A DNA stretch of 5,921 nt. Origin: Escherichia coli (GTDB taxonomy: Bacteria > Pseudomonadota > Gammaproteobacteria > Enterobacterales > Enterobacteriaceae). The first letter of the stretch is position 1; each line of letters starts with the position of its first letter. The translations under genes were made by a program, and so were the position numbers. The notes beneath the pieces were generated by a model. The model was given only the letters and a program-made list of their open reading frames with translations. It was not told the origin of the DNA and made no database searches. The stretch is from NCBI RefSeq assembly GCF_003334355.1, contig NZ_QOWP01000068.1. One strand, given 5' to 3'. Below are positions 1 to 5,921 of the stretch, one piece after another.

Positions 1-125
1 TGCAGTTGCCATGTTTTACGGCAGTGAGAGCAGAGATAGCGCTGATGTCCGGCAGTGCTTTTGCCGTTACGCACCACCCCGTCAGTAGCTGAACAGGAGG
101 GACAGCTGATAGAAACAGAAGCCAC
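1..125 (-). CDS. insA: IS1 InsA, N-terminal fragment (truncated by the window edge)
   Basis: Minus-strand GTG at 125-123, then codons translating [41 protein letters not shown]; the CxxC...CxxC zinc-finger-like pattern matches InsA as I recall it. Confidence 0.8.
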
Positions 126-157
126 TGGAGCACCTCAAAAACACCATCATACACTAA

Positions 158-180
158 ATCAGTAAGTTGGCAGCATCACC
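158..180. repeat. IS1 terminal inverted repeat (IRL), 23 bp
   Basis: atcagtaagttggcagcatcacc is the reverse complement of GGTGATGCTGCCAACTTACTGAT, and an imperfect inverted match to the repeat at 5845-5867. Confidence 0.85.
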
Positions 181-315
181 CGATGTGACTATGATCGTAT
201 CCGGTGAGTACAGCTTTGATCCAAAGGCTGGTTTTCTGTGATGATTGACCAGCCTCAGAGTATTGATGACACCACCGTTCATAACAGATCGGCATTACTA
301 TGCATAAGTACTGTC

Positions 316-1368
316 TCATATTCTCGCCAAAACACTTTTTAATGCCTTTGCGAATTCATCCAGACTTATATTGTCAATTTTTTGCCCAACGACGACTGAC
401 TCCGAAACATCGGCCATTGCGGGCCATCGCGTTTTGTAATCAGCATAAATTGCAACAACGGGAGTATTATAGGCACTTGCCATATGTAATATTGAGGTGT
501 CAGGAGTTATTGCGATATAAGCATCTTTTATGATTGCTGCTGAACGTTTAATCGAGGGTGATAAGGATAAACGGTAGACATTATTATAACAATCCACTAA
601 TACCCTGGCTTTATCTTCCCCTTTTGGTCCATGAACGATCACTATTGGTATATCTGTTTCACTTTGAATTTTTGCTATTAGATTTTCTGCAATCGATAAT
701 GAAAATGTACGTTCCTGCGAGCTACCTTCTAAATTAAGCGCAATGTAAGATCCTAACGATCGCATTTCCTCGCGCACCTCATCGAGTACATCCTCACTTA
801 GTGGCAATTCATATATTGGCCTGACTGCTGGAAAACCCGCCTCACGCATCATAAATGCCCATGTCATGGGTACAGGAGCCCGGAGATTCTGATCCATCCG
901 GGACGCGTTCTTGCACAAAGGGGAGTAGCACTTCATGGTTAAACCAACAACCTGAAAATTCGTTTTTGCTTTTAACTGACTGATAAATATCATCGTTTTC
1001 AGGTTCTTTTTACGCATCGCCTCTATACAAAGATCCGGCGTACCGTATTGCTGTGTTATGTTCTTTGCTAAATCTTTTATTTCTTTTAATGTTGCGTGAT
1101 CCTGCATAGTCATTGTGACTAATGTTAATTTAGTCTTTTCAAGTTTAAGTGCATTAAACACTTCTAAATTAATTGTCGACGTAACAATTAAAAGATGCTT
1201 AATTTTATGCAATTCAAGCGCCCGAATAACAGGAAAGATGGCCATAGCATCGCCAATCTGGTCGGGAATATGGATAACAACAAACTCTGTTTTTTCAATA
1301 TTAAAATTATAAGCTTTATAATCGTAGTAACTAAATGCAATACGTCTCAACAATGATGCTAAAAACAT
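316..1368 (-). CDS. yeeL: Glycosyltransferase family 9 (ADP-heptose:LPS heptosyltransferase-like) protein; YeeL-like
   Basis: Single uninterrupted minus-strand frame ending in TGA at 318-316. The N-terminal region (VVIHIPDQIGDAMAIFPVIRAL) resembles the GT9 'GD' motif region, and the C-terminal region (ITPDTSILHMASAYNTPVVAIYADYKTRWP) resembles the conserved GT9 DSGpmHlAaA...P-x-valfG block. Start is uncertain: the ORF track opens at a TTG (1431); the first in-frame ATG is at 1368-1366, preceded by GGGAGG/GAGG, which gives 350 aa. Position next to shiA matches the yeeL locus. Confidence 0.75.
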   Translation of the reverse strand: MFLASLLRRIAFSYYDYKAYNFNIEKTEFVVIHIPDQIGDAMAIFPVIRALELHKIKHLLIVTSTINLEVFNALKLEKTKLTLVTMTMQDHATLKEIKDLAKNITQQYGTPDLCIEAMRKKNLKTMIFISQLKAKTNFQVVGLTMKCYSPLCKNASRMDQNLRAPVPMTWAFMMREAGFPAVRPIYELPLSEDVLDEVREEMRSLGSYIALNLEGSSQERTFSLSIAENLIAKIQSETDIPIVIVHGPKGEDKARVLVDCYNNVYRLSLSPSIKRSAAIIKDAYIAITPDTSILHMASAYNTPVVAIYADYKTRWPAMADVSESVVVGQKIDNISLDEFAKALKSVLARI

Positions 1369-3005: not shown

Positions 3006-3045
3006 GGCGAAGATCATCCGATCTTCGCCTTACACTTTTGTTTCA
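3006..3045 (+). terminator. Candidate intrinsic terminator downstream of shiA
   Basis: Perfect 9-bp stem GGCGAAGAT (3006-3014) / ATCTTCGCC (3021-3029) with 6-nt loop CATCCG, followed by the T-rich tract TTACACTTTTGTTT. Begins 7 nt after the shiA stop. Confidence 0.45.
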
Positions 3046-5614: not shown

Positions 5615-5623
5615 TTATATTTT

Positions 5624-5660
5624 AAAGAAATCTGTCTTTACGGCAGATTTCTTTAATCTC
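5624..5660 (+). terminator. Candidate intrinsic terminator downstream of yeeN (AT-rich hairpin, possibly bidirectional)
   Basis: Inverted repeat AAAGAAATCTG (5624-5634) / CAGATTTCTTT (5644-5654), 11 bp perfect with a short loop, followed by TTTAATCTC. The stem is AT-rich so strength is uncertain. Begins 10 nt after the yeeN stop. Confidence 0.45.
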
Positions 5661-5844
5661 ATATAACCCTTATAAAAAATATAATGTTCAACTCGTCATA
5701 TTGATTATAAAAAATCCCCGTTCCCAGAGAAATAATATTTATTAAAATTCCAGTTCTTCTTTTTCTGATTACAGAAGGCAAAGTGGCAATTACGCATAGT
5801 TTCCCGATAAAGACGCGATAGCGACATCCCGCATAAGGCATTTT

Positions 5845-5867
5845 GGTAATGACTCCAACTTATTGAT
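5845..5867. repeat. IS1 terminal inverted repeat (IRR), 23 bp
   Basis: ggtaatgactccaacttattgat; differs from the repeat at 158-180 at a few positions, as expected for IS1 IRL versus IRR. Confidence 0.85.
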
Positions 5868-5921
5868 AGTGTTTTATGTTCAGATAATGCCCGATGACTT
5901 TGTCATGCAGCTCCACCGATT
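5860..5921 (-). CDS. insB: IS1 InsB (transposase C-terminal part), 3' fragment truncated by the window edge
   Basis: Minus-strand reading gives ...SVELHDKVIGHYLNIKHYQ followed by stop TAA (complement of 5862-5860), matching the InsB/InsAB' C-terminus from memory. Confidence 0.75.
   Translation of the reverse strand, partial: SVELHDKVIGHYLNIKHYQ

Follow-up and report, generated by a model that had tools for sequence, protein, structure and literature searches.

Organization of the locus

The window, meaning here the whole 5921 base stretch that was analysed, holds the E. coli yeeL–shiA–amn–yeeN block with a partial IS1 in direct orientation at either edge. The unique 5664 bp show 100 % identity to strain PSS-12 (NZ_AP027697.1), and in a BLAST comparison with that strain the entire window tiles on a single IS1 plus the segment (6432 = 768 + 5664 bp). 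Of the left and right IS1 copies only 180 and 77 nt, respectively, are visible, in the same direct orientation. Features are given below in window coordinates, where the window coordinate equals the PSS-12 locus coordinate minus 11820.

1–180, minus strand: left IS1 copy, terminal 180 nt with the IRL end; equals positions 589–768 of the 768 bp PSS-12 IS1
125–123, minus strand: GTG start of insA in the left IS1 copy, the frame running off the left edge (from translation)
158–180, minus strand: IS1 left terminal inverted repeat (IRL), 23 bp, last base 180, ATCAGTAAGTTGGCAGCATCACC
167–195, plus strand: hybrid sigma-70 promoter-like site, TTGGCA (in the IRL), 17 nt, TATGAT (in the flank); 10/12 match to consensus
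181–189, no strand: target sequence CGATGTGAC beside the IRL, which in a simple insertion would be one copy of an 8–9 bp target-site duplication; in the window, L021 and L022 alike, the right flank starts at PSS-12 12001
181–315, no strand: yeeL-proximal 135 bp of the 261 bp yeeJ–yeeL spacer, 100 % identical to and collinear with PSS-12 12001–12135
225–255, no strand: 8 bp perfect inverted repeat with a 15 nt loop, AGGCTGGT (225–232) and ACCAGCCT (248–255), 8/8 complementarity
316–1368, minus strand: yeeL, intact gene for a 350 aa glycosyltransferase of family 9 (GT9) (ORF; PSS-12 WP_000477906.1)
5837–5844, no strand: left copy of the 8 bp target-site duplication GGCATTTT of the right IS1; in PSS-12 on both sides of that IS1
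5845–5921, minus strand: right IS1 copy, first 77 nt with the IRR end; equals PSS-12 IS1 positions 1–77

The left edge ends in an authentic IS1 terminus. The last bases of window 1–180 read ...GTTGGCAGCATCACC, the complement of the IRL; the terminal inverted repeat GGTGATGCTGCCAACTTACTGAT stands at the tip, window 158–180 being its complement, and the insA frame opens about 55 nt inside the IRL, with the N-terminus of InsA (41 protein letters) encoded by window 125→3 on the minus strand. Among 13 full-length IS1 copies examined from other strains, 10 lack the variant IS1 base found at window 54. The break between IS1 and chromosome falls at 180|181 and is base-precise, the IS-free references having a T where the last base of IS1 is a C: in alignments with K-12, PSS-12 and three other strains, the junction in the IS-free genomes is ...GAATCGCGTT|CGATGTGAC..., as against ...GCATCACC|CGATGTGAC... 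in the window. The initial annotation had placed the IRL junction at exactly this bond, and the match of window 1–180 to the PSS-12 IS1 bears it out.

The yeeJ–yeeL spacer

The convergent yeeJ and yeeL stops are annotated 261 bp apart in both K-12 (yeeJ end 2052014; start of the yeeL pseudogene, b4497, 2052276) and PSS-12 (11874 and 12136 of the locus). Window 181 is position 12001 of the PSS-12 locus, which places the IS1 insertion point intergenically, 126 bp past the yeeJ stop and with 135 bp left on the yeeL side. The yeeL stop at 316–318 and the 135 bp flank at 181–315, both noted at first reading, agree with the ORF and with the PSS-12 annotation. The flank maps to PSS-12 12001–12200 at 100 %, is single-copy and was found in 5061 of the 5426 complete E. 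coli genomes. Judged by these alignments, 181–315 is native chromosomal spacer, unaltered and unrearranged.

The initial annotation had named yeeJ as the K-12 neighbour on this side, which the K-12 annotation confirms, and had supposed that the IS1 replaced or interrupted what lay here. Alignment of 181–315 to the region downstream of yeeJ retains the first part of this picture and removes the idea of an interrupted yeeJ, whose stop lies 126 bp to the left of the IS1. No yeeJ reading frame reaching window 181 was seen in close relatives. A candidate C-terminus of YeeJ at 182–241 was likewise rejected, the annotated yeeJ stop being 126 bp further left. The left edge is an IS1 IRL end joined to the yeeJ–yeeL spacer of a chromosome that is, here, essentially identical to that of PSS-12.

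A hairpin and a terminator in the spacer

The inverted repeat at 225–255 was described correctly from the outset, with 8/8 complementary arms and a 15 nt loop, and the view that it is not a terminator also holds: a run of T is absent on either strand and the terminator scan was silent, the 15 nt loop exceeding the 3–8 nt loop range of that scan. Its stem-loop is stable and contains G+C, with an 8/8 stem that folds at −16.1 kcal/mol on the plus strand and −15.2 on the minus strand (z about −3.1). Downstream (3′) of the stem there is no T/U-run, the sequence being CAGAGTATTG on the plus strand and TTGGATCAAA on the minus strand.

On the yeeJ (plus) strand, AAAGAGTGCTCC-ATTC-GGAGCACTCTTT and the T-run behind it form the sole canonical terminator of the spacer. 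It has a 12 bp stem, a 4 nt loop and T6, occupies PSS-12 11894–11921, begins 20 nt past the yeeJ stop and is placed beyond the IS1, 79 nt leftwards of the insertion point. That the hairpin noted first lacks a U-tract is explained by the position of the spacer's real terminator, across the IS1. No intrinsic terminator for yeeL is recognizable anywhere in the 261 bp spacer.

The hairpin itself is a native, conserved, single-copy feature of the spacer. Among dinucleotide shuffles of 181–315, 3.5 % yield an 8 bp perfect inverted repeat with a loop of 3–20 nt, and about 1.9 such repeats are expected per shuffled 5.9 kb window; for a scan of the whole window the repeat is only marginally beyond chance. 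A role for the repeat as a functional element in yeeL (or yeeJ) RNA, as opposed to a chance origin, is unlikely. Stability on both strands at that z value would favour a function, as would the arms, which are unchanged in seven spacer alleles while the alleles vary elsewhere; however, the whole stretch 223–298 is equally invariant, so that the conservation is not of the arms alone. In the WL297 allele, the most divergent found (78 % identity), C228→T is paired with G252→A (CG→UA), and 100 % of the hairpin alignment cells are paired. This covariation, however, is a single compensatory event and is not significant, 61 of 500 shuffles scoring as well. The lack of a recognizable intrinsic terminator for yeeL in the spacer also counts towards a functional hairpin; against it stand the frequency of such repeats in the shuffles, the absence of any Rfam match at the gathering score, and the 15 nt loop and missing T-run, which are unlike a terminator. 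A search for tRNA and tmRNA returned nothing, and the hairpin sequence is present in one copy per genome, which is not the pattern of a dispersed repeat of the REP/ERIC type. The functional forms considered were a 3′-end stabilizing hairpin and part of a Rho-dependent termination region; either would fit any scenario for the junction.

A promoter-like site at the junction

Joining the IRL to the spacer sets the outward −35 box of the IS1 end 17 nt from the native TATGAT, within the 16–18 nt expected between an outward IS1 −35 box and a −10 box in the flank. The IS1 inverted repeat is documented to carry a −35 box that points outwards (PMC8764528). The resulting promoter-like site is directed rightwards and would read antisense into yeeL; no promoter-like site is present in the uninterrupted PSS-12 spacer. 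Five promoter-like sites were found in 1–1700 against 5.2 expected, and the hybrid site is to be read as a consensus match only. From the other direction, transcripts of yeeL, which has no recognizable intrinsic terminator, would enter the IS1 in the direction of insA. Judging by its title, Machida et al. 1983, an entry in the reference list of PMC12428005, reports that flanking read-through represses IS1 cointegration.

The right IS1 copy

The right IS1 differs from the left in that both of its flanks can be read in PSS-12. The 8 bp GGCATTTT lies on both sides of the IS1 in that strain and occurs once in IS-free genomes; the right copy is, by its sequence, a simple insertion between yeeN and asnW with a duplication of its own, of 8 rather than 9 bp. 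As a single piece the right junction was found in PSS-12 only among the 5426 complete genomes. The native yeeJ...asnW setting of the segment between the two IS1 copies is seen in 5232 genomes, and relocation of the segment as a unit with an outer duplication, the mark of a composite transposon, was not found. The two IS1 copies are therefore separate insertions and not the ends of a unit that moved in, given the native position of the segment and the right copy's own duplication.

The flanks cgatgtgac (181–189) and aggcatttt (5836–5844) were both read correctly in the initial annotation, which took their difference to mean that the junctions were not one simple insertion event. This argument fails: it sets the inner flank of one IS1 copy against that of another, and such a comparison is uninformative, because a target duplication brackets one single IS1 copy.

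Origin of the left junction

The left junction has no single-piece match in the 5426 complete E. coli genomes and is absent from JGI metagenome contigs and from GTDB representative genomes. The predicted complementary junction (GAATCGCGTTCG..GGTAATGACTCC) is absent from JGI metagenome contigs, and a literature search combining yeeJ and IS1 found no paper describing the left junction. Identity over 5664 bp, together with a right IS1 junction that among the complete genomes only PSS-12 shares with the window, indicates a source very closely related to that strain and few steps removed from it.

Whether IS1 enters this region by simple insertion or REARRANGEMENT can be compared with the IS1 junctions of other strains, which were catalogued at the locus in PSS-12 locus coordinates.

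11810: IS1 simple insertion, duplication CAGGTGATC
11835: IS1 simple insertion, duplication GCTTGGGTT
11839: IS1 simple insertion, duplication GGGTTTGCT
11918: IS1 simple insertion in the T-run of the terminator, duplication CTTTTTTA
12027: IS1 simple insertion, duplication AGTATTGCT
11141, 11753, 12001 (twice), 12393 and 12406: six IS1 junctions without a duplication and with foreign DNA on one side

Taken across the locus, the prior for simple insertion against rearrangement is roughly even. About half of the catalogued IS1 copies lack a duplication, including both of those at the window's own base, an observation that tells against simple insertion. The junctions without a duplication and with unrelated DNA on the far side are those of L003, L006, L019, L020, L021 and L022. 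The five other IS1 copies that keep yeeJ-side sequence on the far side all have duplications of 8–9 bp, and a duplication of 8 or 9 bp is the norm for IS1 (PMC12428005).

The left junction probably arose by ordinary one-step transposition of IS1. On this account yeeJ and its terminator would be intact on the far side, with another copy of CGATGTGA(C) standing before them; the far side would read ...GAATCGCGTTCGATGTGA(C) immediately before the IRR end, and the far-side junction would be ...CAAGAATCGCGTTCGATGTGA(C)|GGTAATGACTCCAAC. The main competitor, somewhat unlikely, is that the IS1 marks a rearrangement in which the DNA to the left (yeeJ, and possibly more) was lost or exchanged. The routes to such a product would be an IS1-mediated adjacent deletion or homologous recombination with another IS1, after or instead of insertion, and the outcome would be an unrelated locus on the far side and no duplication. 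Precedents exist at the locus: HSP60 (L021) and CP131_Sichuan (L022) carry an IS1 at the same base without a duplication and with yeeJ gone, the far side being the HPI (downstream of fyuA) or an asnT-side integrase, and similar losses are found nearby in L003 and L006. The IS1 of L022 is a mosaic of two IS1 types, a signature of recombination between IS1 copies; PSS-12-type genomes offer about 21 IS1 places as recombination partners; and in the literature a missing duplication has been read as IS1-mediated deletion (PMC10786849). A rearrangement would, however, need two steps in a lineage that matches PSS-12 throughout the 5.7 kb. In PSS-12 itself the spacer is intact, and about 62 kb to its left, a stretch that includes pgsA and tRNA-Cys, is free of IS1. 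With no left IS1 within that distance and essential genes in between, a one-step adjacent deletion would not be viable, provided that the source genome resembled PSS-12 also to the left of the IS1, as this argument assumes.

Two further readings carry much less weight than either transposition or rearrangement. It is highly unlikely that the window comes from an IS1-bounded unit, either a tandem duplication, [segment + IS1] × 2, or an excised circle of IS1 plus segment, made by replicative transposition of the right IS1 into position 181 on the sister or the same molecule. In such a product the yeeN end of that very segment would stand before the left IS1. The arrangement is suggestive in that both IS1 ends match one and the same PSS-12 IS1, down to the variant base at window 54, in that they are in direct orientation, and in that the whole window tiles on one PSS-12 IS1 plus the segment; cointegrate chemistry would also be expected to give an IRL|target junction in an excised or duplicated product. 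A circle without an origin, however, would not be maintained; in a tandem duplication the wild-type yeeJ–spacer junction would persist and would normally break the assembly at 181 and not 180 nt into the IS1; and the shared IS1 variant occurs also in the unrelated strains L002 and L024. An assembly artefact, produced when a contig ran on in error into a collapsed IS1 repeat, is extremely improbable. The window does start and stop inside IS1, as repeat-bounded contigs do, and the junction was found in no other genome, but the break coincides to the base with the true end of IS1, two finished genomes have a genuine IS1 boundary at that position, and mis-joins seldom fall exactly at the tip of an inverted repeat.

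Recurrent use of one target base

Two genomes only, HSP60 and CP131_Sichuan, have an IS1 at the same base as the window, in each case via the IRR and hence in opposite orientation. The IS1 at this base is IS1A in HSP60 and a 6 %-divergent type in CP131_Sichuan; the two elements are identical over positions 1–292 and differ at 42 sites in 293–768, the part that contacts the flank. Homologous recombination should be unable to switch the IS end that contacts the flank, so the event seen in the window would be independent of those in L021 and L022.

About eleven independent IS1 junctions fall in a zone of roughly 700 bp. With ten other independent junctions in a 750 bp zone, the chance that at least one of them lies at the window's base is 0.013, and the chance for at least two is about 1e-4. 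The recurrence at one base suggests a preferred IS1 target, the joined sequence being CGRTGTGACTATGATC. AT-richness is the usual explanation for IS1 target preference. Tentatively, and with a little less than even confidence, IS1 strand transfer may have a natural hot spot at the bond 180|181, precise to the base and hit on no fewer than three independent occasions; the precision would then come from a protein bound there or from the local structure of the DNA rather than from AT-richness.

Nothing in the nearby sequence explains the recurrence, although several local features were considered at the target. A long imperfect palindrome based at 181, seen in an RNA fold of 181–315, was rejected, the DNA fold with upstream context giving z +0.38 and a different centroid. 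No IHF-type site (WATCAANNNNTTR, up to 1 mismatch) was found near the target, and homology to the IS1 ends near the target was nothing notable, at best 9–10 of 15. Selection for the hybrid promoter as the cause of the recurrence is weakened by the HSP60 junction, which has the opposite orientation and no promoter-like site; the argument from promoter spacing does not hold for the IRR-oriented copies.

Significance

These results correct the reading of the locus on three counts: the IS1 lies between genes rather than within yeeJ, its flank is spacer in native form, and the terminator lies beyond the IS1. The importance beyond annotation is small. The junction is an ordinary instance of a thoroughly known event, and the recurrence at the same base is its sole mildly unusual aspect. 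Two minor points are of possible interest to specialists in mobile elements. The base at the junction appears to be a natural case of three independent IS1 events at one position, in a region that has repeatedly lost yeeJ and the yersiniabactin island (HPI) to IS1. The promoter-like site made by the junction, which would read antisense into an intact yeeL, is likewise a minor point that may be of interest.

Comparison with known systems

The hairpin at 225–255 resembles a Rho-independent terminator in having a perfect, G+C-containing stem between convergent genes, and differs from one in its 15 nt loop and in the lack of a T-run on either strand. The promoter-like site resembles the IS1 hybrid promoters described in PMC8764528, which combine a −35 box in the IRL with a resident −10 box; the candidate here, however, points antisense into the 3′ end of yeeL and not into a downstream gene.

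At the level of the whole window, two IS1 ends in direct orientation around a 5.7 kb gene block, visible over 180 and 77 nt, give the appearance of an IS1 composite transposon of the type known as Tn9. Unlike such a transposon, the block is in its native chromosomal position and the right IS1 has its own duplication. The IS1-mediated deletions or IS1 × IS1 recombinants of HSP60 and CP131_Sichuan share the target base and the IS1 agent with the window; in those strains the IRR end stands on the flank and the far side is foreign, whereas in the window it is the IRL end that stands on the flank. The simple IS1 insertion with a duplication of 8–9 bp (Grindley 1978, as cited in PMC12428005) is matched by the authentic IRL terminus on an unaltered intergenic target and by the 8 and 9 bp duplications of other copies at the locus. 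It differs in that, for the left copy, one flank only lies within the window and the second copy of the duplication would lie outside it.

IS1 junctions between yeeJ and yeeL

The IRL of the left IS1 copy abuts a base that is also an IS1 boundary in two further E. coli strains, HSP60 and CP131_Sichuan: window position 181 (12001 in L001, the locus of the closest relative, PSS-12) corresponds to L021 6034|6035 and L022 6023|6024, respectively. In HSP60 and CP131_Sichuan it is the IRR that touches the shared base; beyond the other end of the element lies DNA of the yersiniabactin island (HPI) or of an integrase, and there is no duplication. Assuming uniform targeting, at least two coincidences at the window's base have a probability of about 1e-4. 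Among 5426 genomes, approximately 11 independent IS1 junctions are gathered in the 3′ end of yeeJ, the spacer and the 3′ end of yeeL, and several are accompanied by loss of yeeJ and/or the asnT-adjacent HPI.

L001 about 11750-12410 (window about -70 to 590): IS1-rich zone, seen in loci L003, L005, L006 and L017-L025 of other strains

Strains IH5 and PK6 have an identical junction within yeeL (L019 6390|6391 and L023 4674|4675; L001 12393), with the left flank ...GGATAAACG and with DNA on the other side that differs between the two. Either the two strains inherited this junction from a common ancestor, or IS1 targeting is recurrent at this site as well.

Relationships of the IS1 copies

Compared with the HSP60 IS1A (L021 5267-6034), the CP131_Sichuan IS1 (L022 5256-6023) is a mosaic, being identical at positions 1-292 and carrying 42 differences in 293-768. 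Such a structure is consistent with recombination of two IS1 types that would have deleted the HPI and yeeJ. The right flank of 2.1 kb is near-identical between these strains. The left IS1 copy has an A at window position 54 (IS1 position 127 from the IRL), which changes an insA codon synonymously (ACC->ACT). The right-hand IS1 of PSS-12 has this base too, as do 3 of 13 full-length copies examined from other strains. Such sharing is compatible with the left copy having arisen locally, without proving it.

Flanking genes and features of the junction

yeeL (window 316-1368, - strand) is a 350-aa glycosyltransferase family 9 gene, intact here and in most strains, and a pseudogene in K-12 MG1655. 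The PSS-12 yeeJ (L001 4798-11874) is full length, yet its annotation lists it as a pseudogene and gives it an internal stop; thus, the adhesin may already be inactive in this lineage regardless of IS1.

The IS1 end itself creates a promoter-like site that is not in the uninterrupted spacer and reads into yeeL in antisense.

167-195, + strand: promoter-like site TTGGCA-17-TATGAT, 10/12, spanning the IS1 junction

In intact spacers, the insertion point is straddled by a perfect inverted repeat with arms of 10 nt, TCACAGAAAA/TTTTCTGTGA; these arms are parted by IS1, and the right one is located in the loop of the 8-bp inverted repeat (225-232/248-255). The left arm of the 8-bp repeat shares bases with a weak terminator-like site, which would compete with the hairpin of that repeat on the + strand.

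L001 11954-11963 and 12052-12061 (right arm, window 232-241): arms of the 10-nt inverted repeat
211-230, tail to 240, + strand: weak terminator-like site with 7 pairs, G-T among them, and the tail GTTTTCTGTG
3006-3029: perfect inverted repeat after shiA, 10-bp arms
5622-5656: perfect inverted repeat after yeeN, 13-bp arms

These longer inverted repeats downstream of shiA and yeeN are likely the window's intrinsic terminators, and the 8-bp repeat can usefully be contrasted with them.
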